A DNA stretch of 51,177 nucleotides from a virus (lineage: Duplodnaviria; Heunggongvirae; Uroviricota; Caudoviricetes): the IMG/VR virus record IMGVR_UViG_2579778634_000021; one strand, given 5' to 3'. A program made the translations under genes and the position numbers. The notes under the pieces were generated by a model that searched no databases, was not told the DNA's origin, and saw nothing but the letters and a program-made list of their open reading frames with translations. This document shows, piece after piece, positions 1,286 through 43,066 of the stretch. The stretch's first letter is position 1. Each line of letters starts with the position of its first letter.

Positions 1286-1495
1286 AACCGCAGCACGTTC
1301 TTGCTTAAGACGTGCTGCGGCATAATCCCAATGATTACTCCCTGACAGGGTTCGTAGGCCACTCAATATCAGGTGCAGTTGATGTATCAACACGGTTCAG
1401 CAACACCCGATACTTTTTCCAGGCTTCCAGCAACGAGATTTCTTCCTCTGTTGCAATTTCCAGATCTGCAGCATCCTGAAGCGGCGCAATATGCT
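1286..1495. repeat. direct repeat copy B (tfa 3' end plus terminator hairpin)
   Basis: Partner of 235..450. Contains the 11-bp-stem hairpin ccgcagcacgt/acgtgctgcgg immediately after the tfa stop. Confidence 0.7.
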
Positions 1496-1919
1496 CGCTG
1501 GCTACCTGCATCAGGCTGTTTTTTGTTTCTTCCGCCTCCCGGATCCGGAACAGTTTTTCTGCTTCCGTATCCTTCACCCAGGCTGTGCCGTTCCACTTCT
1601 GAAACTCCCCTTCCGGCGATAACCAGGTAACATTTTCCGGTAACGGACCGAGTTCAGAAATAAATAACTCGTCCCCTGACGCTACGTCATAAACCGTTTT
1701 ACCCCGATGGTCTTCAACGAGATGCCACGATGCCTCATCACTGTTGAAAACAGCCACAAAGCCAGCAGGAATATCTGGTGGTGCAATATCGGTACTGTTT
1801 GCTGGCAGACCTGTATGAGGCGGAATATATGCGTCACCTTCACCAATAAATTCATTAGTTCCGGCCAGCAGATTATAAATTTTTATGGTCCGTGCTTGTT
1901 CACTCATTCTGAATGCCAT
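1335..1919 (-). CDS. tfa: tail fibre assembly protein Tfa
   Basis: 194-aa ORF directly downstream of the side tail fibre gene, with the start overlapping the stf stop. Conserved Tfa C-terminal domain. Confidence 0.85.
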
Positions 1920-5907: not shown

Positions 5908-8900
5908 TCAGCTAATCGTGATGCCTGCAGTGGCTTTCTTCATCACCACAACCAGCAAATCGCTGATACTTGCTGTGGGATACCAGTTATTTACCAGCCA
6001 TGCTGACACCGAAAACTCCAGTGTCATGTGACCGTGACCGGCAGGCATATCAATAACACCACTGTAAATCAGCGTATTATCCAGCGCGGTACGGTTATAA
6101 ATTTCAGCACCGTTTTTCCGCACTATCAGACGGCATGAGGAGTAAATATCAGTATGCTCTTTCTCATGTTTAGCGCCGCTGAATGCCACCGCCGGAATAA
6201 CAATCTGCCGGTCAAACGGCTGATCGTCATAAACCCTGACGGTAATGGTTCCTGATGGCCACCGCTCCGGTGCACGGGAGTCCCGGGGGAAAGCTTTGCC
6301 CACTGTTTTAACGAGATCGCCTTCAATCTGGTTCGCGGACAATTTTCCCAGAACCCGACAGTTCTCGTTAATCGTGACGTTGTTGAGCGTCCCGGAGTTC
6401 GCATTCACGTTACCGCTGATATCGGCATTTTTCGCCGTCAGCCGCCCGTCCGGTGTCAGGGAAAATGCCGGAGGATTACCGCCGCTGGTAATGGTGGGAG
6501 CCGTCAGATATTTCAGGAACACTTCATTCATAAATATCTGATCGCCCTGACCAACAAACATCGGCTTTGTGTTGCCATTCGCAGGATTAATCATCGCAAT
6601 CCTGTCTGCCGCCAGCAGCACCTGACTCTGCATTCCTGCTGGCGTATTCTCAATACCGGCACCGATACCCGCAATATAAAGGCGTCCGTCCTGCATCTGC
6701 TGCAGTTTCACGGCCCACATGCTGTTCAGGTTATTATTTGTATCAACCTGAACTTTCTGTATCTGCTGGATTGCCGCACTCTGATTTTCCAGTTTTTTAT
6801 TGACGGTCTGCGTGATTTCATTGCTGACATTCGTAATGGACGTCCTGATTTCAGCCAGGTCCGGCGCAAGCTGACCGTTATCAATCTGCGTCCACAGCTC
6901 CTGGGCCAGATGTGTTTTCCCGATTTCTCCTTTGAAAAAATCCAGGTAACCTTCCGCATCATCGCTCGCCCGACCGACAGCCTCCACGAATGCCGATTTG
7001 CCAACAGTATTCACACTGCGGATATAAAAATAATAATCATGGCCCGGTTTGATATTGATACTGGCAGCTATCCAGTACAGCGCCGAGCCAAGATAGCGGG
7101 CTGCGGTTTCAACCTGCCTGATATCCGCAATCCGCTTTTCCGAGAACCAGAACTCAAACTGTACCGTCGGGTCATAAACGGCAAGATGTGGCGTTGCGGT
7201 TATCTGAAAATAGCCCGGCGTCAGCTCAATCCGCGACGGTGCTGCCGGTGCGGCAATCCGGAAGGTGGTGGTGGCAGGTTCACCCTGCTGGCCATAGCTG
7301 TTTATCGCCCGCACCGTCAGGGTGTATTCCCCGAGCGGCAGGCCGCTGAAACGGTGCTCCGTGTCTGCGGTGATGGCGGTGGTCACCAGTCTGGCATCCG
7401 TTCCCTTACCACTGGTCAGGCGCAGACTGAAGCGCACACCCTTCACCACCCGCGGCGTGTCCCATTTCGCCTGCGCCAGATACTGGCCGTCAGCTGCGCT
7501 CACCTCCACCGTCAGGTGCTGCACTGCCGGTGGGATGACGCTGTTCAGGGAACCTGACTGCGGCTCAAAGCGGGCACCGTTATCCACGATGGCTTCTTTT
7601 TCCGGTACGTGCTGCACCGCCGTGATGGCAAAGGTGCCGTCCGTGTTTTCCCGGATGGAGACACAGCGGAACAGGCGACGGCGCAGTGACGGCAGGGAGA
7701 GTCCCCACACCCCGTATGTCTCCACACCATCAGGCAGGGTACTGACCTGTATCCGGTCCGGCGCGGGGTGTGCGGTGATGTCCACACTCACCGGCTTACC
7801 GCTGCCGTTAATCAGGTTCACCGTCGATGCACCTGTCCCCGGAAGTGTCACTTCACGGTCCAGCGTCAGGGTGCGGGTGGCAGCATCAATGGACAGGACA
7901 CGTCCGCCGGTCAGGGTCCCGGCATAGTCGTTATCACAGATTTCAATGATGTCACCGGGTGTGTGCCGCAGCCCCTGAGACCCGAGTGTGAAATCCACCG
8001 TCTGCGTTTCCAGCAGTTCGGTCTTTATCACCCACAGTCCGGCACGGTGGGCCTGACCGCGGCTGGTACAGCCGAACGCGTCCATCTTCAGCAGGTTGCG
8101 TCCGTAGCGCAGTATGGCTTCCGGGTCTTCCACCAGTTCCGTGGAGGTCTGCCAGCCGTTCTGCGGGTCGGTGTAATTCACCTCCACCGCCGTGTGCCGG
8201 TCCTTCAGGGCACTGAAGCTGTAGCGGAACCCCACGCCGTTATCATCCACCACCACATCGCTGTTCGTGTACGGCCACACCACATCCGACGGGCGGTCCT
8301 GAACGAACGTCAGCGTCTGGCCGTTCCATACCGGCATACAGCGCATCGCCGAGCAGAAATCACTGAGAACGTCCCACGCCTTACGCTGTTGTGCCAGGTA
8401 CGCATTAAAGGTCATCCGCGGCTCGGTCCCCCCGAAACCATCCGGGACCGTCTGGTCGCAGTACTGCCCGATGGCATACAGCGCCCACTTGTCCACATCC
8501 GCCGCCCCCAGACGTTTTCCCATGCCGTAGCGCGGGTGAGTCAGCATGTCCCACAGGCACCAGGCCGGGTTGTTGCTGTATGCCGGTTTCAGACTGCCGT
8601 CCCAGATACCACTGTACGTGCGTTTTTCCGGGTCATAGTTTGACGGCACCTGGATGATGCGACCGCGGATATGGTAGTTCACCGTCATCTGCTGGCCGCC
8701 GAACTGCTCCGCATCCACCTGCAGCCCCACAATGGCCGTGTTCGGGTAGCACTGTTTCACATCGATGATTTCGGTGTATGACGACCACAGCGTCTTATTC
8801 TGCAGCTGGTCCGTGGTGCTGTCCGCCGTCTCCCTGACCATCCGGATGTTAAAGGGCCGGGGAGGCAGATTATCCAGAATCACCGAGGCCAGGAACTGTG

Positions 8901-9381
8901 AGGTGGTCTTGCCGTTAATGGTGACGTCCTTTTCCGTCACCCAGCGGCCATTACGCTGTAACTGAATCAGAATCCGGACAGAGGAAGGATTACGGTCGCC
9001 CTTTGACGTGGTCTGCACCAGTGACTGCACCCCGAAGGTAACCCGCAGGCGGTCAATGTTCGCGGACGTAATGGTACGCGTCACCGGTTTTGCCTTCGTC
9101 ACTTCCACGCCTGGTCCGGTTTCAGCTCCGGAGGACTCAAAGCCTTCCGGTGGTGTCTGCTCCTGCTCCCCGGCGCGCCAGACCGCCGTCACACCGTGTA
9201 TCACGGGATTGCCGTCCGTGTCCGTCAGTGGGGTTTTGTTCACCAGAATACTCTGCAGTCCCTTCACCGGACCTTCTATCGGTCCCTCACCAATCGCATC
9301 AATCACACTCATCATCTGCGTGGATTTGAGATTATCCTTCGCCTCACGAGGCGTGTGTGCCTTACCGCCACCTTTTCCCAT
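5908..9381 (-). CDS. J: host specificity / central tail fibre protein J
   Basis: 1157-aa ORF. N-terminus and overall length match lambda J. Confidence 0.95.
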
Positions 9382-9723: not shown

Positions 9724-10404
9724 TTATCCCTGTCGCCCGATAACCACGACCGTTCCGCCCCCGCCTTCATCACGGGTGCTGATGTCCTGGGATATACGGC
9801 GGGAGCCAACCAGCATTTCCCCGTAAGGCACCGGCATCGGGTTCCCCTGGGCAATCATGTTATCCAGCGAGGAAAAGTACGTGTTCTGTTTACCGTTATC
9901 CGTGCTTTTGTACTCCGGTGTTTTTGCCTTCGGGGCCAGCATCTGGGCCACACCGCCCAGTATCATGCTGGCCCCCAGTGAAAACAGCATCGTGGTGGCA
10001 GAAAAACCGCCGGCTGCCAGGGCTGTACCCCATAACGCCATCGAGCCTCCGGCAGTGAAGAAAGAGCCCACGATGGCTGCCGCCCCCAGCACAATCTGCA
10101 GTCCACCCTTTCCGGCCCCGGCCAGTCGCGGCACAATGTGGATGACCGTTCCCTCACCCAGCTGTTCGTGAAGACGGGCGTACACCGCCTCCGGTGCCGT
10201 GTCATCACCGGCAATACGTATCTGGTACCAGCCTTCGTTCATCTGACGGCGAAAGCCCGGCATCTGCATCGACAGGGCGCGGATGGCTTCCGCTGCCGTG
10301 TTCACATACAGGCTGAGGCGGCGGCCAAATCGTTGCAAATCCCCGTGAAGGCAGATGCGTGCCAGTGGCGGTGACGCCAGACAGAATGCGTTCGTCGTTG
10401 CCAT
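9724..10404 (-). CDS. I: tail assembly protein I
   Basis: 226-aa ORF with a lambda I-like N-terminus (MATTNAFCLASPPLARICLHGDLQRF). Located between K and J. Confidence 0.9.
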   Translation of the reverse strand: MATTNAFCLASPPLARICLHGDLQRFGRRLSLYVNTAAEAIRALSMQMPGFRRQMNEGWYQIRIAGDDTAPEAVYARLHEQLGEGTVIHIVPRLAGAGKGGLQIVLGAAAIVGSFFTAGGSMALWGTALAAGGFSATTMLFSLGASMILGGVAQMLAPKAKTPEYKSTDNGKQNTYFSSLDNMIAQGNPMPVPYGEMLVGSRRISQDISTRDEGGGGTVVVIGRQG

Positions 10405-11045
10405 TTTTCGGAATACCTCTCCCGTTTACTCAGTTGTTCAGGCAGATGGTGAAGCAGCTCACCGTTGCCGCAGTAAATGGCGGCATGGTTCGGTACCGAA
10501 GCACCAAAGCAGCACAGCAGAATATCGCCCGCCTGTGCAGAGGACAGGGGCACCCGGTAAAAGCCCGTTCCCTCCATATTGTCCAGGTACAGGTTCTGGC
10601 CGTTGCGCCACCAGTCATCCTCGCGATGAAAATCCGGCATTTCAGTCCCCGCCAGATGATAAGCATCCCGGAACAGCGTGTAACAGTCCGTCACCCCGTG
10701 CTCAAAGCGCCGTCCTGTCAGATGTGGCACACAGCGGAATTTGTGAATGTCACCCCGGCAGACCAGCCACCAGGGCAGTGCGCTTTTTATCTGCAGCCGC
10801 CGGTCAGCCTCGCTCAGCCAGGGCAGCCCACCGGGATGACTGTGGACCAGTGCCACAATCTCCCCCTGCATCTCTGCCCGCAGCCAGTCTTCCGGTGCGA
10901 TACGAAAATACGCCTCCGGCTCTGCGGAAATATTCACACAAGGGATATACCGCTCCTCCTCCGGCGTGCTTATCACGAAGCCGCACGACTCCGCAGGCGC
11001 ACACCGCCGGGCATGTGCCAGAATCGCTGATTCAGTCTGTGTCAT
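10302..11045 (-). CDS. K: tail assembly protein K (NlpC/P60-MPN type)
   Basis: Start taken at the internal Met (MTQTESAILAHARRCAPAESCGFV), which matches lambda K. Its 3' end overlaps the I start. Confidence 0.9.
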   Translation of the reverse strand: MTQTESAILAHARRCAPAESCGFVISTPEEERYIPCVNISAEPEAYFRIAPEDWLRAEMQGEIVALVHSHPGGLPWLSEADRRLQIKSALPWWLVCRGDIHKFRCVPHLTGRRFEHGVTDCYTLFRDAYHLAGTEMPDFHREDDWWRNGQNLYLDNMEGTGFYRVPLSSAQAGDILLCCFGASVPNHAAIYCGNGELLHHLPEQLSKRERYSEKWQRRTHSVWRHRHWHASAFTGICNDLAAASACM

Positions 11046-11055
11046 AAACCGGGAT

Positions 11056-11755
11056 TTACTGCGAAAGTTTATTAATGGAAAGGAAACCGCCAAAATTGCC
11101 GACATTCCTGCGCAGTTCACACCCGCGCATGCACTTGCTGCATCTGTCCTTACGGATATCCGTGGTGGGGTTGTCGAACTCATCCGCCACAGCCCCGACC
11201 GTTATACCCGCATTCATCTCCCCGGTAATCCCACATACAGGTGTTCGCCAGCATGATGCGACCGGGAAACAGCGCCCCGTCCGTCTCGGTCGGTGTGGCC
11301 AGCACAAACGAGGCCGTCATGGCTGTCAGCTGCGACATCTGCTCCACCACCCAGCGGTCACTCAGCTCCTGCTCCGGGTCCGCTTCCGGATTGCCCGCAA
11401 CGAAATTCACCGCATCCAGAAAACGGGCATACACCCGGCGGCGGACCACCGTGGCCCCCACCAGGCTCTGCAAATCCTCCGCCATTCCGGTGACAAGACC
11501 AAACAGATTGGACACCGTCAGCAACGGTCTGGCACTGCTGCCCTTTCCGTTCATCTCAAAGCCGCTGCCCTCAATCGGGTACGCCTGATATTGCCGCCCC
11601 TGCCAGGTGACCGGCTCCCCTTTTTCATTCAGCTCATTGCAGAAAAAATACCGCTCACCGCCCTGTACCGTCAGGTCGATTTCCCAGAGCACCACCCGCG
11701 GTGACTGCTCTGATTTAACCGACTCGTTCAGACTTTCTTCGTGAATATCCTGCAT
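11056..11755 (-). pseudogene. L: minor tail protein L, apparently frameshifted
   Basis: The first 191 codons (11180..11755) match lambda L up to DECGYNG. The lambda-like C-terminus (AVADEFDNPTTDIRKDRCSKC...FLSINKLSQ) continues in another frame to 11056. The shift falls in a G/C homopolymer near 11193..11200. Confidence 0.7.
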
Positions 11756-12084
11756 CAGTTCACCACCTGCTTAAACTCCGCGCTGAACTCAACGCGCAAC
11801 ATCCCGACCCGCGCAGACCACCCGGCACAGGTCACCTTTATCTGCCGGTATGCATAGGGTGGCTTCCACAAAAATGCCTTCCAGCCACCGTGCTCTGCCA
11901 GGAACGCTTCCAGATGACGGGCCTCCTCCCGGGTCACGGAAAGCATCACCCGGTATGTTTTCAGGTCAGCATTCAGCCCTGCCGCCATACGCTGTGAGTA
12001 CCCGTCACCAAAACGCACTTCACGCACCGATGGCTGCGAGTTCACCTCCATATCCGGCTTCACTTTCCAGCGAAATGTTTTCAT
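11755..12084 (-). CDS. M: minor tail protein M
   Basis: 109-aa ORF, the same length as lambda M and similar in sequence. Confidence 0.9.
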   Translation of the reverse strand: MKTFRWKVKPDMEVNSQPSVREVRFGDGYSQRMAAGLNADLKTYRVMLSVTREEARHLEAFLAEHGGWKAFLWKPPYAYRQIKVTCAGWSARVGMLRVEFSAEFKQVVN

Positions 12085-14654
12085 CGCCCGCTCCCTGATA
12101 ACATACCGCCATCACGCAACTGCAGCCGGAGTTCATCCTGTGCCCCCTTGCGGGCCATGTCATACACCGCCTTCATCAGCTGCGGCCCCGCCTGTCCGTT
12201 GATACCGTCGTTCTGAATCACCACGTGATTGTTCTGATTAAAATTAATACCTTCCGCCCGCCGCATCTGCGCCGGACTTCCGGCAGCACCCACATACCCC
12301 CCTTCCGCATAGCCCCGCATCAGGCGGTACAGGTTCCCGACACCAATCCGGCTGGTTGCCTCCTTCGTGAAGACAAACTCCCCGCGGTGAACTATCCCCG
12401 CTGGCTCATATTTGCCACCGGTTCCCGTAAATCCCCCGGTCGCGAAATGGAAGTTCGCCGCCGCAGCCTGAATGGCCGTCCCCGTGGAAGCGGATGCGCC
12501 ACCACCGAAAGCACCACCAATGGCGCTGCCGATACGCCCGACAATCCCCACCATCGCCTGCTTCAGAAAAATCTCTGTCAGCATGGAGAGCACGGAACGG
12601 GTGAAACCACGCCAGTTCTGTTCGCTGCCGGTCAGCATCGCTGCCATATTCTGTGCAATACCGTCAAAGGTCTGCGTGGCCGCGCTTTTAACCTGCGAAA
12701 AACTGTCCGTCGCACTTTCCGCCCACTCGCCCCAGCCGGACTTCAGACCCGCCATCCAGCTTCCACGAAGCTGCTCCTCCGCAGACCAGGTGTTCTTCAG
12801 TGCAGATGTGGTCTTCGCCAGCGCATCCGGATTATCACCGTACACGTCACGAAGGCGCTGCTCTTCCGACTCCCGCTGCGCCTGACGGTCGGTGAGGCCG
12901 CGGGCTTTTGCGCTGATGGCGGCCTGCTTCGCGCTCTGCTGCTGTTCAAACCGCGCCGCCTGCTGTGCCAGCTCATTCAGCCGTTTCTGGTGTTCAACCT
13001 TGTCGCCCAGGTCAGCCAGCTGGCGTTTGTACTCCAGCGTCTCTTTCTCATGGGCCAGCAGGGATTTTTCCTGCTCAGATAACTGCCGTTTCGTGGCGGC
13101 CTCTTTCAGGACCACATACTGATTTTCCGCTTTCCATAAATCCCGGCGCTGCTGGCTGATTTTCTCATTCGCACCGGCATGCTTTTCCAGCGTCAGGAGC
13201 TCGGTTTCAAGCGCCAGCATGGCTGCATGCGCCCGGTCTTCCTGGCGCTCACCGGCAGACACCTTCACACCGGACGGCTTTTTCTGCGTCGACTCATAAT
13301 CCTTTTTTGCCGACGCCATCAGCGTGTTGTAATCCGCCTGCAGGATTTTCCCGTCTTTCAGGGCCTTATTCAGCTCTTCCTGCCGGGCGGTATATTTCTC
13401 CAGTGGTGTCAGCAGGCGCTCATACGCCTTCTGCGCCTCTCCGGTATACTTCAGCTGTGACGACTCACGCTCAGCCCTGTCCCTTGCCGCCAGTTCACCG
13501 GCTTTTTCCATATCCGACTGCAGCGTTGCCGCTGCCAGACCCAGACGGGCATTTTCCCGGTCATCCCATGCGCCCTGAAGGTTGGCCCGGAAAGAGGAGG
13601 TTTTACCGCGGCGCTGGCTCCGGCTCTGGTACCACTGCCATTTTTTATCCGCCTCATCAAATGCCTTCTGCGCACTGGCGAGCATATCCGCTGAGGATTC
13701 CGGACGACCGATATCCAGAATGGCATCCCACATCGATTTGAATGCCTTCCCTGTTTTATCCGCCCAGGTCTCCAGTGTTCCCATGTTTTCTTTCAGGCGA
13801 CGGGTCTGCTCATCAAAGCCTTTCGTGGCGATATCGTTCGCCGCCTGTAAGGCCCCGGCCTCGTCTCCGGAACGCTGCAGTTGTGCAACATACGCAATCT
13901 GCTCTGCCGTCACGTTACGGAACTGGCGCGCCATCGCCATCAGTCCCGACGTCGGGTCGGTGGTCAGTTTTCCGAAAGCCTCTGCAACCTTGTCCACTTC
14001 AACACCGGAGGCAGACGCAAAACGTGCCACACTCTGGTTAATGGCATCAAACTGTTCACCACCACGCACACCGGCACTGACCAGGGCTGCCAGTGACTCT
14101 CCCGCCTGGTTAAACGTCAGCCCTGCTGCCTGCCCGGCTCTTGAGAGCGTCAGCATACGATCGGCAGTCAGTCCGGCCTGATTGCCGGAAAGGACCAGCG
14201 TTTTATTAAATTCTGAAAGCGTGGCGTCGCCCTGATACCAGGCGTACGCCAGCGCACCTGTCGCCACCGCCAGCGAGGTGACCCCGACCATCGGCAGGGT
14301 GATCGCACCGGCAAGCCCCCGGAACATGGGGAGCATCCCGCCGAAGGAGTCCTTCACCTGACCGCCCTGTTGCAGCAGGATGAGCCAGGGATTCTGACCA
14401 CCGGCAAGCTGCGTGGCGATATCCGTAAACTGTGCGGGCAGGGTTCGCATGGCCGCTTTATACTGCCCGACGGAAATCCCGGCTTTTTGTGCAGCCAGCG
14501 CCTGGCGGCTCAGGCCCTGTTCAACAGCACTGGCGGTTTTTCTGGCGTCGGTATCCAGACCTGAAAAATGACGCCTTACCCGGCTCATCTGCTCATCGAA
14601 ACGGACAGCATCCAGACTAAGGTCAATAACAAGATCACCAACCGGCTGGGACAT
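12081..14654 (-). CDS. H: tail tape measure protein H
   Basis: 857-aa ORF. Lambda H-like sequence and position downstream of G/T. Confidence 0.95.
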   Translation of the reverse strand: MSQPVGDLVIDLSLDAVRFDEQMSRVRRHFSGLDTDARKTASAVEQGLSRQALAAQKAGISVGQYKAAMRTLPAQFTDIATQLAGGQNPWLILLQQGGQVKDSFGGMLPMFRGLAGAITLPMVGVTSLAVATGALAYAWYQGDATLSEFNKTLVLSGNQAGLTADRMLTLSRAGQAAGLTFNQAGESLAALVSAGVRGGEQFDAINQSVARFASASGVEVDKVAEAFGKLTTDPTSGLMAMARQFRNVTAEQIAYVAQLQRSGDEAGALQAANDIATKGFDEQTRRLKENMGTLETWADKTGKAFKSMWDAILDIGRPESSADMLASAQKAFDEADKKWQWYQSRSQRRGKTSSFRANLQGAWDDRENARLGLAAATLQSDMEKAGELAARDRAERESSQLKYTGEAQKAYERLLTPLEKYTARQEELNKALKDGKILQADYNTLMASAKKDYESTQKKPSGVKVSAGERQEDRAHAAMLALETELLTLEKHAGANEKISQQRRDLWKAENQYVVLKEAATKRQLSEQEKSLLAHEKETLEYKRQLADLGDKVEHQKRLNELAQQAARFEQQQSAKQAAISAKARGLTDRQAQRESEEQRLRDVYGDNPDALAKTTSALKNTWSAEEQLRGSWMAGLKSGWGEWAESATDSFSQVKSAATQTFDGIAQNMAAMLTGSEQNWRGFTRSVLSMLTEIFLKQAMVGIVGRIGSAIGGAFGGGASASTGTAIQAAAANFHFATGGFTGTGGKYEPAGIVHRGEFVFTKEATSRIGVGNLYRLMRGYAEGGYVGAAGSPAQMRRAEGINFNQNNHVVIQNDGINGQAGPQLMKAVYDMARKGAQDELRLQLRDGGMLSGSGR

Positions 14655-15048
14655 ATCTCACACCTCCCGGAATCCCCGCTGAAGCCATCATTAATGCGGC
14701 ATCATCCACCATGACATCCGCCACATCCGCAGACGATAAAATATCGCGCCCTCCGTCCCCACCGAACCGGACGCCTCCGGCAAGTCCTGCCGCTTTCTGC
14801 ATCAGCATTTTGTCCTCATCCGGCCTCTCCACCTGCTCTTCCTCATGCCGGGGGACAAGCAGACTGAAATCCGAGGGATGCATATCCGGATCGCAAAAAA
14901 ACAGGCTGAGTACAGCGTACGTCAGCCCGGAAAAATGCATATCCAGCTGGGTATCCTGAAAATAATGCGTGCGGTAAAAACGGTGCCAGTCGGCATATTC
15001 GGTGGATGTCATCCCGGCAAGCATGGCGCGCCAGTCGGGTCTCCCCAT
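14635..15048 (-). CDS. T: tail assembly chaperone T segment (expressed as the G-T fusion by -1 frameshift)
   Basis: Open frame in the -1 frame relative to G, with no convincing independent start. It continues from the slippery site. Confidence 0.8.
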   Translation of the reverse strand: MGRPDWRAMLAGMTSTEYADWHRFYRTHYFQDTQLDMHFSGLTYAVLSLFFCDPDMHPSDFSLLVPRHEEEQVERPDEDKMLMQKAAGLAGGVRFGGDGGRDILSSADVADVMVDDAALMMASAGIPGGVRYVPAGW

Positions 15049-15074: not shown

Positions 15075-15506
15075 TCAGCTCGCCGTCGAAGACTTTCCCG
15101 CAGAAAAATCATCATCAGTCAGCGTGTTATTTTTCGCCACTTCAGTAATATCAGTATCCGGACGAACAACTTCGATCATCCCGGACAGGCACAACACCAC
15201 GTCTTCCGCCCGGGCAATGGCATCGGCAGGCCAGGTGGTGAGCACTTCCTGCTCTATCTTCATCACGGCCTCATTCATTGACGGTGACCCCGTTTTCTGC
15301 GGATGGTTATGCCACAGGGACATCGCCACCAGAAACGCGCCGGTTCTGACGAGATCTTCCACGCTTACCTGCAGGTTGCCGCTGGATTCTGCCTGTTCTG
15401 CACGCCGTTTCAGGAGGGCAAGATGCTCGATACGCTGCAGCGCAGACAATTCGGAAAGCGTGACAGACACACCGTTATATTCAAATTGTTCTGTTTTCAG
15501 AAACAT
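15075..15506 (-). CDS. G: tail assembly chaperone G
   Basis: 143-aa ORF, lambda G-like, ending 6 codons after the slippery heptamer. Confidence 0.9.
   Translation of the reverse strand: MFLKTEQFEYNGVSVTLSELSALQRIEHLALLKRRAEQAESSGNLQVSVEDLVRTGAFLVAMSLWHNHPQKTGSPSMNEAVMKIEQEVLTTWPADAIARAEDVVLCLSGMIEVVRPDTDITEVAKNNTLTDDDFSAGKSSTAS
15093..15099 (-). promoter_or_regulatory. programmed -1 ribosomal frameshift site G GGA AAG
   Basis: The heptamer GGGAAAG lies in the G zero frame as G-GGA-AAG. The -1 frame reads into the T ORF. Confidence 0.85.
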
Positions 15507-28336: not shown

Positions 28337-30310
28337 TTATGCTGCTACGGCATTCACACCAACAGTAAGACTTTCAATCAGCACAGGGTAAGTTGCCGCA
28401 TTTCCGGTAATATCCGTAATTGCCAGCGCGTTGGCCTCAAAGGCTGCATTCGTCCATCTGGTCAGCGTAAACGGTTTTCCTGCTGCATTATCAAGCACCG
28501 GCGTGACGTTCAGCGAGCCACCACCCGGGAAGCGGAAAGTCAGCGTGTGCCAGTCGTGATCGAACGGACCATAACTACCAAGCCGCTGTGATGTGGTGTT
28601 TGCATGATACATCACATTGATGTTTGTTTTATCAGTCTGCAGATAGAAGGCCGCAATATAACCCTCCTCTGATTCCGCTCCCGGCCATCCACTACCGCGC
28701 CAGTAAATACCCGCAGAATATTGATTTGCAGAAGCATTGAGAGATACATCATCGGGGATTTTAAAGCGCAGCGTGATTTCACCGCCGTTATCGAACAGCT
28801 CCTTCCCCTTACCGGCATCAATTGCGTGCGATACTTTCCAGGTCTTTTTCTGTGCAAGACCATTTTCTGGTTTTTCAAGACGAAGGGCTTTTTTACCTGA
28901 ACCACTGTCACTGACCAGCGTGTTTTTGACATCTGTCAGCGTCCAGCCCTGCGAAGCCAGAGCGGCATTTTCCGCATTCACATCATAAGCCAGCACTGAC
29001 TGTATCTTTGTCGGGACAACGGCTTCAGGCTGAGTATCGCCACTCTCCTGTGCTGGTTGCGATACGCCTCCGCCTGAAGAAACCGCGGCTTTTGTCACTT
29101 TCCCGGAAACAAAATCTGCCACTCTGCCCACATGCAGAAGAATGGCTGTTGCCAGACGGTCGGAAATAATTCCGCGACGCGCCCATGAACCAAAGTGGGT
29201 TTTACGATCGGATGTTGTCCAGCTCTTCGCATCCGTTCGTCCACCGGAACCATAATACCCGATAGCCGGAATATCCGGGTCTTCTGACGGTTCATTGGTC
29301 CCGACTTTCTGACCATTGTCATCCATCATAAACGGCACAAAGAAGATATTTTTACCGGCTTTGGTTTTGTATGCGCCATAGACGGCATCGTATTGCGCTG
29401 AATACGTCTCCTTCCAGTAGTACGTCGTGTCACCACAAATCCAGGGCACCAGAGAAGGAGAAGCACCAGCGCACTGACCGGATACTCCCGCCAGGTCAGA
29501 ACGGTATTTTTCCACCATGGCATCAAACATGGCGGGCTGACTGGCGTACGCTCCCTGTTTTAAATCAAACTCGCCCTGCATCCAGACAACACAAAGCAGT
29601 ATGTTTTTGGGGTTTGCCTTCAGCGCGGCCTGAGTGCGTGTCAGCAGGTCTTTATACAACGGCTTATCAACGCCCCATCGTTCAGATTTATCCGACGCTC
29701 CTGAACTTTCACTGAACGTTCCGTCAGCACCGGCTGTAAACGCAGAGCCACCACGACAGCACGGCACTAACAAAATACCCGCATTTTCCGGCATAAAGGG
29801 CAACAGCTTTTTGGCAATATGCAATCCCTGTCCGACACACCCATACTGCTCTGCGCTGGCTTTCGGATGAGAAAAACGGCTCAAATCCTGCACATCATGC
29901 AGGCAGTGGTCCGCCGGAATGATGTCGTTATATGCACAGGCCGCACCACCCGGTGTCACCGTACTGCGACGCGCCAGCTGTTTAATACGCGGGTCCGGAC
30001 GGTCATATGTCTCCGGCAGCGGCAGGCCTTCACCATACGCCATGCCGTTTGACTGTCCGGCCAGCGCAATGACAAAGTAATATTCTGGTTCAACAACAAC
30101 AGTCCGGGTACCATCTCCCCCCGGTGAAACTACCGGAGAGGTCATATCCCCTTCAGCGACTATAGCCTGGATAAATTCAGCACCATAACCCGCGTTTGAG
30201 ATAATCGGACTACCATAGGGTTGCCAGCCTTCCTTCAGTTTTTGCGTCAGTTTTCCTGCGAGGTCTGACGGCGATGATGCCCTGACCACGTCATAGTGTT
30301 TAAATGCCAT
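28337..30310 (-). CDS. nanS: prophage sialate O-acetylesterase-like protein (NanS-p type)
   Basis: About 657 aa from MAFKHYDVV. N-terminal domain typical of prophage NanS-p, a GQSN esterase motif, and the usual position between the Q region and the lysis cassette. Confidence 0.75.
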   Translation of the reverse strand: MAFKHYDVVRASSPSDLAGKLTQKLKEGWQPYGSPIISNAGYGAEFIQAIVAEGDMTSPVVSPGGDGTRTVVVEPEYYFVIALAGQSNGMAYGEGLPLPETYDRPDPRIKQLARRSTVTPGGAACAYNDIIPADHCLHDVQDLSRFSHPKASAEQYGCVGQGLHIAKKLLPFMPENAGILLVPCCRGGSAFTAGADGTFSESSGASDKSERWGVDKPLYKDLLTRTQAALKANPKNILLCVVWMQGEFDLKQGAYASQPAMFDAMVEKYRSDLAGVSGQCAGASPSLVPWICGDTTYYWKETYSAQYDAVYGAYKTKAGKNIFFVPFMMDDNGQKVGTNEPSEDPDIPAIGYYGSGGRTDAKSWTTSDRKTHFGSWARRGIISDRLATAILLHVGRVADFVSGKVTKAAVSSGGGVSQPAQESGDTQPEAVVPTKIQSVLAYDVNAENAALASQGWTLTDVKNTLVSDSGSGKKALRLEKPENGLAQKKTWKVSHAIDAGKGKELFDNGGEITLRFKIPDDVSLNASANQYSAGIYWRGSGWPGAESEEGYIAAFYLQTDKTNINVMYHANTTSQRLGSYGPFDHDWHTLTFRFPGGGSLNVTPVLDNAAGKPFTLTRWTNAAFEANALAITDITGNAATYPVLIESLTVGVNAVAA

Positions 30311-30513
30311 TATTCCTCCCGGCAGGGATAGTGTATGCAATCAAGATAAGGTGCGGGCTGACGTCAGTCATGGACAAGGGTTCAGAAACAGGAGGATGAC
30401 TACAGCCCGCAATACGAAAAAGACCATACAGTTGCGCAGAGTGATTACTGTCGGGTATTATTCGCCAGCTGAAAATTGATCACTTCACGTTTTGTTGTTT
30501 ATTCCTTGCCACC

Positions 30514-30570
30514 CGCGCTTCCCGGCGCGGGCTTTTTTTTATCCAACAAGAAAGCCCCTCCGGAGAGGGG
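30514..30570. terminator. two back-to-back terminator hairpins
   Basis: cccgcgc..gcgcggg followed by T8 (plus strand), then gcccctccggagaggggc with a U-rich run on the minus strand. Confidence 0.5.
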
Positions 30571-30800
30571 CTGGAGAGTAGCGCTATGTACCGTTCATGC
30601 ATGGTGCAGGGTGCCTCCCGGTGAGTTCAGTATCAGCACCTGAACCCGCACCAGAAAGGATAAGGGGTGTGACCAAACACCTGTCGCTGATATGCCCCTC
30701 CGCACAGGGGGATTCACCATGCCATATTTTTTTAACAAACTTCCCGCTGGCCAGACAATAATCGCCAGCCTGAATTGTGAGTAACGTGGCATTTTACGGG
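30545..30800 (-). repeat. repeat unit 1 (about 250 bp, begins with the hairpin aaagcccctccggagaggggct)
   Basis: Shares several long blocks with 31025..31285, for example catggtgc.gggtgcctcccggt and gggggattcacc...tttttaacaaa...gccagacaat. Confidence 0.6.
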
Positions 30801-31024: not shown

Positions 31025-31285
31025 CTGCACAGAAAAGCCCCTCCGGAGAGGGGCTGAAGTATAGCCTAATTTCTGTCTGTCGCATGGTGCCAGGTGCCTC
31101 CCGGTAAATTCAGCCTGGCTACTGAATTTGCATGTTCGCTGGATCATACACTTTGCCAGATGCCCCGCCGCTGAGGGGGATTCACCACGCGATGCAATTT
31201 TTAACAAATTCTCCGGCAGCCAGACAATCATCAAGCTGTGGAATTGTGAGGTATTTAAAAATTTCGCAGCCTCTTGCCACCCGCT
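31025..31285 (-). repeat. repeat unit 2
   Basis: Same block order as unit 1. A degenerate third copy lies between them at about 30821..30960. Confidence 0.6.
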
Positions 31286-34132: not shown

Positions 34133-34834
34133 TCAGAATTCAAATTGTCTTGCCCGCAGGCTTTTCAGCATTGGCATGGCCCACTGGATAACGGAACTTG
34201 ACATGTCGAGACGTGTTACCTCCCTTAGTAGCGCGTCTCTGTTCTTCGTCACCATGTAGATAGTCTCAAACGCAATGTCATACAGCTTGTTCGTGTATGA
34301 GGAGTTCAGCTCTTTCATTATGGGGTACAGCTGCTTGCTAAGGTCCTGGGCTTTTTCCATCCAGAGTTGCATGTAGCAAAGGAGGATGATTTCCTCGGCT
34401 GTGAATTGTGGCTGAATCTGCGGCTGCTGTTCGGTTGGTGCTGTTTTTCCCTGGCTGAAATAGCAGTCTTCCAGTTTTTCGAACACTTCCCACGCCTGAT
34501 CGGTTTCGAGCATTTTTGCGTGACGGGCTGCGCCGCGTTCTGTCCAGAGGATGAGGGAGCGAACATTGCGGGCGATTTTCACAGAGTAACTTTCTGTTAC
34601 CTCGCGGCTAACAGACTCGCTTAAAGATAGTCTGTGCTTGAACTCACGTAGTTCATTCCCTTCCAACTTAAAGAAATGTTTTCCCTGTACAAATCGCGCA
34701 GAGTTACGGGAAAAATTCATTTTTATATTGACTGTTTCAGTGCCATACAATTGCGCCAATAATTCTGTAGTAATTACGGGGATCTGGTTGTAGGCAATTG
34801 GGGAAAGAGTTTCAACGGAAATTTGAGTCGCCAT
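34133..34834 (-). CDS. ORF6N-domain protein (antirepressor-like, putative DNA-binding)
   Basis: 233 aa. The N-terminal block VITTELLAQLYGTETVNIKMNFSRNSARFVQGKHFFKLEG fits the ORF6N pattern. Inserted between the two ninB-ninE copies. Confidence 0.6.
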   Translation of the reverse strand: MATQISVETLSPIAYNQIPVITTELLAQLYGTETVNIKMNFSRNSARFVQGKHFFKLEGNELREFKHRLSLSESVSREVTESYSVKIARNVRSLILWTERGAARHAKMLETDQAWEVFEKLEDCYFSQGKTAPTEQQPQIQPQFTAEEIILLCYMQLWMEKAQDLSKQLYPIMKELNSSYTNKLYDIAFETIYMVTKNRDALLREVTRLDMSSSVIQWAMPMLKSLRARQFEF

Positions 34835-35112
34835 GACAACGCCCTCTGGTTGATGAATTTAACTATCACCACCGTCAGGTGCAAATCTTTGGGTGGTGAG
34901 ACGTACAGGGTTTGCACTACCGGATCAACCAACCGGCGAGCCTTTCGGCTCCCCCATACGCCCCACCATAATTCAGATGTGCGTGTGCTTACGACAACAA
35001 AAAACACGCTCGCGGCGTGTGTCTGTCGCGGTTGAATATCCGGGGTGCAAATCCCGACGCCAGATTTTGCTGGCGCGTGAGGAATATAGCCCCGAATAAA
35101 TCATCACGTCAA

Positions 35113-42016: not shown

Positions 42017-42077
42017 CTTGTGTTGGTCGCCAGAAAATGAAATTAGGCAGCAAACCACTTATTTGAGAGGAATTAAT

Positions 42078-42701
42078 ATGTCATCAATCCGCTTAACTAC
42101 GAGAATGAAAGAGGAAATCGCTCGTAACGCTTTAATTAAGTCCGGGGTGTTCACTGAACTTGAAGAAGTAACAAAGTTAAAGAACCAGCTTGCACTTGAC
42201 GCCAGAGTTATTGCGTTTGGCGGGAAAAAGAAAACCGAAGAAGTGGACCAGCTGGCATCAAAGTTAATGGCTGCAAGTGAGGAACTTCAAAAGCTGGGAT
42301 GTTCATTTTACTCATGCGATGTCAGTTCATGTTCGATTTATCTGACTGTATCTGGAAGAAGGGTTGGCTGGCATTCATACGGAAAAGACGGCAACGGTGA
42401 AGATATATTGCTCCCTACCCCCGACAAAGATAAATGCATGTTTGACGCAGAACACAAAATAACAAAAAGGTTTGATGAAATCTGCGCATTGCAACAAAAA
42501 CTTGAAGCCAGGAAAAAGGATATAGAATCAAACGTATGGGCTGCTTTGAACTCAGTCACAACAGTTAAGCGACTTATTGAAGTTTGGCCTGAAAGCAAAG
42601 AGTTGCTACCAAAAGAAGCAGATAAAGCAAGTGCAGCACTTCCTGCTTTACGGGTAGAAGATTTGAATAAGATGATTGGACTTCCTTCCGAGGCCGCATA
42701 A
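42078..42701 (+). CDS. hypothetical protein (early-left operon, ral/sieB slot)
   Basis: 207 aa from MSSIRLTT with a GAGAGG ribosome-binding site. AT-rich; no known domain recognised. Confidence 0.5.
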   Translation: MSSIRLTTRMKEEIARNALIKSGVFTELEEVTKLKNQLALDARVIAFGGKKKTEEVDQLASKLMAASEELQKLGCSFYSCDVSSCSIYLTVSGRRVGWHSYGKDGNGEDILLPTPDKDKCMFDAEHKITKRFDEICALQQKLEARKKDIESNVWAALNSVTTVKRLIEVWPESKELLPKEADKASAALPALRVEDLNKMIGLPSEAA

Positions 42702-42861: not shown

Positions 42862-42925
42862 ATGCATACCAATAACGCTTCACTAGAGGCGTTTTCGTTA
42901 TGTGTAAATAAATAAGGAGCACACC

Positions 42926-43066
42926 ATGCAATATGCCATTGCAGGGTGGCCTGTTGCTGGCTGCCCTTCCGAATCTTTACTTGAACGAATCACCCGTAAA
43001 TTACGTGACGGATGGAAACGCCTTATCGACATACTTAATCAGCCAGGAGTTCCCAAAAATGGATAA
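42926..43066 (+). CDS. cIII: cIII (FtsH inhibitor)
   Basis: 46-aa [49 protein letters not shown], which matches lambda cIII. Not in the supplied ORF track because it is under 60 aa. Confidence 0.85.
   Translation: MQYAIAGWPVAGCPSESLLERITRKLRDGWKRLIDILNQPGVPKNG

Follow-up and report, generated by a model that had tools for sequence, protein, structure and literature searches.

The closest described counterpart of the gene considered here is lambda gpL (PDB entries 8iyk, 8iyl, 8k35, 8xcg, and 9e7m; Pfam family PF05100). Residues 154–232 of lambda gpL form an iron-binding domain, in which a [4Fe-4S] cluster is held by Cys173, Cys182, Cys205, and Cys212 (PMC10721106). The window, that is, the whole 51,177-nt stretch of DNA analyzed, shares with lambda the gene order H-M-L-K-I-J, and the equivalents of all four Fe-S cysteines (173, 182, 205, and 212) are encoded. 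However, in contrast to lambda, the window gene spans 700 nt, its cysteines are divided two and two between two reading frames, and the frame-0 product ends at residue 191.

The window lies within contig JJLL01000134.1 (684,733 bp) of Escherichia coli 1-250-04_S4_C2. The isolate comes from a study of Tanzanian children and was sequenced by Illumina HiSeq 2000 with 100-bp reads, which were assembled with MaSuRCA 2.3.2 (PMC6222053). S4_C2 was typed as ST746, O61:H21, and phylogroup A; S4_C1, a second colony from the same stool, shares its sequence type and serotype (PMC6222053, supplement).

The split reading frame of gene L

According to gene calls and Pfam families, the tail-tip cluster H-M-L-K-I-J occupies 9.7–14.7 kb of the window on the minus strand, with L located between M and K. 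The cluster comprises H (14654..12081), an intact M (11755..12084) whose stop overlaps the L start codon, L itself, an intact K of the JAB/NlpC-P60 type (10302..11045) with one private SNP at 10957 (G30E), I (10305..9724), and J (9381..5908). The J protein (5908–9381) is a singleton cluster at 90% identity. The morphogenesis genes Nu1, A, W, B, C, D, E, FI, FII, Z, U, V, G, T, H, M, K, I, J, lom, stf, and tfa are all intact and of normal length, and regulatory, replication, lysis, and integration genes were all found in the prophage. Every head and tail gene other than L is thus intact, and an earlier sequence-only reading of this DNA had already noted that the other structural genes appear so.

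Gene L starts with an ATG at 11755 on the minus strand, which opens a lambda-L-like frame. The N-terminal frame (11180..11755, minus strand) matches PF05100 (Phage_tail_L) and consists of 186 native codons, followed by RGCGG and a premature TGA (11180..11182, minus strand); frame 0 thus reads ...MWDYRGDECGYNG, then RGCGG, then stop. The 191-aa product corresponds exactly to EZJ37245.1. The conserved C-terminus (AVADEFDNPTTDIRKDRCSKC...FLSINKLSQ*) sits outside frame 0: its 45 codons (AVADEF...FLSINKLSQ*; 11056..11193, minus strand) are read in the +1 frame relative to the start, and this part includes the equivalents of lambda gpL Cys205 and Cys212. The frame-0 product retains the first two Fe-S cysteines but lacks the other two and 46 C-terminal residues, and the window L nowhere offers an uninterrupted frame of about 232 codons with all four [4Fe-4S] cysteines.

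The L span in the window (11056..11755) is 700 nt, whereas in all aligned or surveyed relatives L is 699 nt long or in frame across the junction. Among the best 40 of 157 phage records, and likewise among the best 40 of 1,966 E. coli records, the matches to the L region are one base shorter than the query. After repair of the junction, the L protein aligns with lambda gpL (PDB 8iyk chain L) over residues 1–232 of 232 (425.9 bits, E = 3.4e-127), and because the match extends over 232/232 residues, the split is not a chance pattern. As deposited, L is a pseudogene of the Phage_tail_L family. The geometry given by the sequence-only reading was fully borne out, including the loss of the L frame after DECGYNG, the intact C-terminus read in a different frame, the 700-nt span one nucleotide off an intact 232-codon gene, and the run ccccgacc at 11193..11200.

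Many of the database proteins annotated as L are partial, 187–205 aa long, and located at contig ends; evidently, short-read assemblies very often break inside this gene.

Allele classes and the six-base island

Over columns 1–525, the window L agrees at every base with the L of strain S19-651; it then enters a patch of about 34 nt that belongs to a different allele class. This B-type patch (WDYRGDECGYNG; 11197..11230, minus strand; L columns 526–559) sets the window apart from the A-type alleles of S19-651, NCTC9112, and the sibling isolate S4_C1. The A-type L reads TGG ACC TAC CGC TCT GAT GAG TGT GGT TAC ACG GGC GGG GCT GTG (WTYRSDECGYTGGAV), and the B-type L reads TGG GAT TAC CGG GGA GAT GAA TGC GGG TAT AAC GGT CCT GCG GTG (WDYRGDECGYNGPAV). 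The same stretch encodes GYNGPAV in one class and GYTGGAV in the other, and, judging from the aligned codons (TAT AAC GGT CCT GCG GTG vs TAC ACG GGC GGG GCT GTG), the two classes are locally out of register in their DNA. Since the alleles are out of register at the junction, a switch from one class to the other adds one base.

An intact natural haplotype for the window L was found in the complete genome of E. coli JKHS016. From L column 373 into K, the window and JKHS016 are identical base for base except at a six-base island and at the K SNP, the successive blocks being 187 identical nt up to 11197, the island, 233 identical nt, the SNP at 10957, and a further 357 identical nt. The island (11191..11196, minus strand) reads GGGGCT on the coding strand, where the otherwise identical intact haplotype has CTGCG. 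On this alignment, the replacement of a 5-nt by a 6-nt block accounts for the net gain of one nucleotide, and comparison with the in-frame alleles L009–L018 gave the same net +1 nt in the window.

The island belongs to a 24-nt stretch of A type, hereafter Y (CGGGGCTGTGGCGGATGAGTTCGA; 11174..11197, minus strand), which matches the L allele of the sibling exactly and is flanked on both sides by positions that follow the other haplotype, X. The flanks (187 and 233 nt) are thus those of JKHS016, while the 24-nt core is that of an A-type allele. The hybrid 24-mer of the window is GTATAACGGTCGGGGCTGTGGCGG, with GTATAACGGTCCTGCGGTGGCGG as its intact X counterpart and GGTTACACGGGCGGGGCTGTGGCGG as its Y counterpart; across the junction, the intact X haplotype reads GGTCCTGCGGTGG and the Y haplotype GGGCGGGGCTGTGG. 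The window follows X at about 40 columns that discriminate the two haplotypes and follows Y only at the four discriminating columns of the island (560, 561, 562, and 565). Intact A-type alleles have the same CGGGGCTGTGG and share CGGGGCT with the window, so the GGGG run is of normal length.

When the junction is repaired with CTGCG (CCT GCG), the resulting protein is P0017, which exists in intact form on 11 independent contigs, from isolates as well as from gut metagenomes. The P0017 allele (EHK7600427.1, HAI4170370.1) encodes a protein identical to the repaired window L, and its DNA is separated from that of the window by 3–5 SNPs and the island. Unlike the window, it carries GGTCCTGCGGTGG at the junction, is 699 nt long, and is in frame.

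The hybrid junction is private to the window. It gave 0 matches in the GTDB species representatives, 0 in 5,426 complete E. coli genomes, 0 in IMG/VR, and 0 in the JGI metagenomes, and the record with at least 99% identity at partial coverage in a 76-nt search of the complete E. coli genomes does not contain it. The 191-aa truncated L was found on one contig among approximately 15 billion proteins. Among 94 L copies in the fetched loci, all of them in frame, the junction segment is 49 nt long; it is 50 nt long only in the window.

The A/B patch adjoins the Fe-S cysteines and is a fine-scale mosaic hot spot. In-frame recombinants with breakpoints inside this 40-nt patch of L, for example WTYRSDECGYNGPAV and WDYRSDECGYTGGAV, were observed in IMG/VR and NCBI sequences (loci L134/L135, L166, L137/L033, and L133). 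Such in-register recombinants make up 8/94 of the surveyed L copies, with three forms seen twice and two forms seen once.

Several other readings of the alleles and of the island were considered and rejected. A gapped alignment of the A and B classes suggests a clean compensated frameshift with a +1/−1 pair 7 nt apart, but the bases after the second gap match poorly. A quasi-palindromic template switch is also unsatisfactory, as the nearby complement ACAACCCC templates GGGGTTGT and not GGGGCTGT, whereas the paralogue matches at 24/24 positions. Illumina miscalls in a GGC context would produce changes to G, while the island reproduces the other allele exactly.

Origin of the junction

The assembly of the sibling isolate S4_C1 is informative about the surroundings of the junction. 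Its contig JJLO01000023.1 (16,123 bp) does not differ from the window contig over 14,019 nt upstream, from Nu1 into H and through most of that gene. Two SNPs follow near the 3′ end of H, after which the identity resumes and holds to L column 497. Past this column, the sibling contig carries the A-type version of L, whose 232-aa frame is intact, and then a K unlike that of the window, within which the contig ends. The sibling L occupies the same locus, resembles the alleles of UPEC-245U and NCTC9112, and holds the exact 24-mer that forms the island of the window, but it differs from the window L in having an A-type patch (WTYRSDECGYTGG) and an intact frame. The X (S4_C2) and Y (S4_C1) haplotypes are therefore both found at the same locus in one clone, with about 1 kb of identical sequence upstream of the divergence. 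The simplest reading of the two sibling assemblies is that the clone would carry two or more lambdoid tail modules, which cannot be phased with short reads.

A third source is the Logan contig SRR1186797_52, a de Bruijn assembly of the reads (13,781 bp; two samples), which matches the window throughout and stops 14 nt into L. The 35-aa L fragment expected from it was not found by protein look-up. It is possible that the contig ends at a fork in the graph, with more than one L-like sequence in the reads. The tail tube protein V of this prophage was found only in the S4_C2 assembly, the sibling assembly, and Logan.

The two SNPs of the sibling lie at 14020 and 14024 of its locus (L091; approximately 12253 and 12249 of the window) and are private changes to G just after GGCGGGCGG, converting GGCGGGCGGAAGGTATT to GGCGGGCGGGAGGGATT. 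This form of H has no 100% match in the 5,426 complete E. coli genomes and occurs in 0 IMG/VR contigs, compared with 73 for the window form; the variants are also absent from the Logan contig. They resemble GGC-context Illumina errors and may have been fixed into the assembly as such. Their absence from these sources suggests that the MaSuRCA assemblies may contain unsupported bases near the repeat.

The private change in K of the window (10957, minus strand) is a G-to-A substitution that converts GAGGGGGAG to GAGGAGGAG (G30E) and lies one base from a cluster of haplotype differences. It was not seen in about 80 K genes of the fetched loci, and the K protein is a singleton among 15 billion proteins. 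Either a genuine private mutation or a further error of the consensus may lie behind it.

With these observations in mind, the reading that we consider somewhat more probable than all others combined is that the island is a consensus chimera between co-resident lambdoid tail modules. The two modules would share approximately 1 kb of identical upstream sequence, which covers the 3′ end of H, the M gene, and the 5′ part of L, and would diverge only from L column 498; the consensus step may have placed the sequence of one repeat copy into the other, making a junction that exists in no read. A gap in the coverage of X bridged by a Y fragment is a possible route to the same artefact. The real prophage would then have an intact 232-codon L of the P0017 type and would not be tail-defective. 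MaSuRCA hands its super-reads to a Celera overlap-layout-consensus stage, which is able to mix repeat copies, and such mixing is a common class of error in the overlap-layout-consensus assembly of multi-copy prophage DNA. Since the error correction and super-read steps emit only k-mers present in the reads, only consensus or gap filling could invent a junction; on the chimera reading, it would have arisen in the consensus step. The number of L homologues in E. coli genomes that have any is two at the median and reaches a maximum of twelve.

The assembly chimera is given more weight for three reasons. Only one assembly has the lesion, and the sibling has an intact L; a tract of at most 29 nt with a divergent left end is very unusual for homologous exchange, while the mixing of repeat copies is common; and the sibling MaSuRCA contig also has two variants seen in no other source. 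A simple random mixture of the two copies column by column fails because Y is followed only at the four columns of the island, which are contiguous among the discriminating columns, against X at about 40, and there is no rule of base order behind the choice.

The chimera and a genuine micro gene conversion predict exactly the same anatomy. In the latter case, micro gene conversion or template switching would have copied no more than 29 nt of a co-resident A-type L into the L of this prophage, replacing CTGCG with GGGGCT, an explanation that we regard as a serious one, though with a probability well short of even. The out-of-register alleles would yield the +1 product, a 191-aa L without its last 46 residues and two of the four [4Fe-4S] ligands, and the prophage could complete a tail tip only with gpL provided by another prophage. 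Much of what speaks for a real exchange speaks against the chimera. The block switch is clean, in-register recombinants inside the patch occur naturally, and the prophage encodes a recombinase pair, RecT and a YqaJ-type exonuclease. Most steps of MaSuRCA are unable to generate k-mers that no read contains, which leaves only the consensus or gap-filling stage as a source of the artefact. Through the sibling assemblies, a donor-like and a recipient-like sequence are on record for one and the same clone. Rapid purging would be expected for a defective recombinant and agrees with a private junction, and the lost Cys205, Cys212, and C-terminal domain are documented as structurally important in lambda gpL. 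However, the tract is extremely short, its left end falls within 13 mismatches and an indel in 34 nt, and the identity there is far below that normally needed for homologous exchange. Frameshifts of this type are rare among real mutations, whereas the mixing of paralogues is common among errors in multi-copy prophage assemblies. Furthermore, no second independent assembly contains the junction, given that the sibling L is intact and the Logan contig stops before the site.

A more far-reaching version of the same idea would be that a conversion tract of at most 29 nt between two co-resident lambdoid prophages has been caught in the act, that it inactivated L because any recombinant made at this out-of-register spot is a frameshift, that hybrid incompatibility at the nucleotide level limits the mosaicism of tail genes, and that polylysogeny speeds prophage decay. 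We consider this proposal rather unlikely on the present sequences.

The insertion of a single G into the G run, by slippage or sequencing error, is very improbable. Deletion of one G does restore the 232-codon frame, and the site lies within the GGGG run. The parent required by this model would be a natural L allele with AACGGTCGGGCTGTGG on the X haplotype background (...AAC GGT CGG GCT GTG..., NGRAV), but exact look-up found neither NGRAV nor NGGAV proteins among approximately 15 billion proteins. The parent was likewise missing from the 5,426 complete E. coli genomes (identity bands of the 76-nt search), from IMG/VR (pattern scan), and from all of the 94 surveyed L genes, and all 50 matches of the pattern in the JGI metagenomes belong to an unrelated conserved gene. 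The haplotype that matches both flanks has CTGCG and not GGGCT, and the Illumina HiSeq 2000 platform with 100-bp reads is not prone to errors at 4-nt runs. The homopolymer indel was accordingly rejected, since the run length is not one off that of intact relatives, the A-type alleles share the GGGG run, and a one-G-shorter allele was not found. The sequence-only reading had located the cause in this homopolymer run and had proposed a comparison with close relatives; that comparison upheld its net +1 nt against the 699-nt L but showed no lengthening of GGGG relative to A-type alleles, and the run itself must be given up as the cause.

A programmed +1 ribosomal frameshift or transcriptional slippage making full-length gpL is suggested by the overlap of the two frames (about 125 nt) and by a G-rich stretch before the frame-0 stop, but it can be considered excluded on sequence grounds, as conservation would be expected of a programmed event, yet every other examined L is in frame and the junction occurs in one assembly. 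GGA UGA G is not known as a +1 shifty stop context, inspection of the L split found neither an X XXY YYZ heptamer nor a prfB-like CUU UGA context, and four G are too few for the polymerase to slip productively. The programmed frameshift known for this module is present where expected, at the G-T junction. There, the heptamer GGGAAAG (15093–15099, minus strand), the only canonical one of the cluster, lies near the end of G (15506..15075) and upstream of T (15048..14635), and the −1 frameshift of the tail chaperones appears to be intact. The G-T frameshift of lambda, which belongs to the same tail cluster, is conserved and has a slippery heptamer, while the L split has neither, in agreement with the earlier expectation that a programmed event would be surprising at this site.

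Prophage context and comparison with known systems

The late region of the prophage is Stx-phage-like and carries no stx or tRNA genes. A NanS-p-like esterase (DUF1737 + SASA + DUF6645) is encoded at 28337–30340 on the minus strand, with two tandem copies of the STnc100 sRNA upstream (30542–30751 and 31027–31220). A gene for a protein with nucleotide-modification-associated domain 5 (Nmad5; 42018–42701, plus strand) is located directly downstream of the N antiterminator and is followed by a lambda cIII thermoregulator RNA (42913–42971). Rfam matches to the isrK Hfq-binding RNA and to C4 antisense RNA (34889–35076, minus strand) adjoin an ORF6N/P22 Ant-like antirepressor (34133–34834), and the arrangement resembles a P1/P7-type immunity-I-like module, here within a lambdoid prophage. 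An Rfam match to IS009 (223 bits; 1378–1576, minus strand) lies inside tfa (1335–1919) and probably reflects an Rfam family that was defined on prophage tfa sequence.

If the change in L is real, it is inactivating, since the last 46 residues are lost and two of the four Fe-S ligand cysteines are among them. The truncated L would not be expected to build a tail tip, and the prophage would depend on the gpL of another prophage for infectious particles. The proposal of an inactivating mutation in the sequence-only reading thus holds for its effect, a net +1 split that removes these residues, and fails for its cause, which is not the homopolymer. The general choice that it posed, between a genuine mutation and an error in the data, still holds. 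The further suggestion that the prophage is cryptic was an overstatement. The same clone evidently has another L allele that is intact, and intact gpL from a co-resident module could act in trans, so that crypticity does not follow automatically.

For other apparent pseudogenes among conserved tail genes in short-read assemblies of E. coli with several lambdoid prophages, the lesson is one of method: they should be checked against natural haplotypes and sibling assemblies ahead of any verdict that the prophage is defective. At this locus, the haplotype check turned a supposed homopolymer frameshift into a six-base paralogous island.

A frameshift in one tail gene of a draft lambdoid prophage is in itself ordinary and known, either as decay or as assembly error. 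Frameshift-decayed lambdoid prophages of E. coli, such as the defective Sp prophages of O157:H7 Sakai, offer a parallel for decay. They differ from the window in that its lesion may exist only in the assembly. As in those prophages, one small lesion affects a morphogenesis gene while the lambdoid prophage is otherwise complete, and the host carries several related prophages that are able to recombine with and complement one another.
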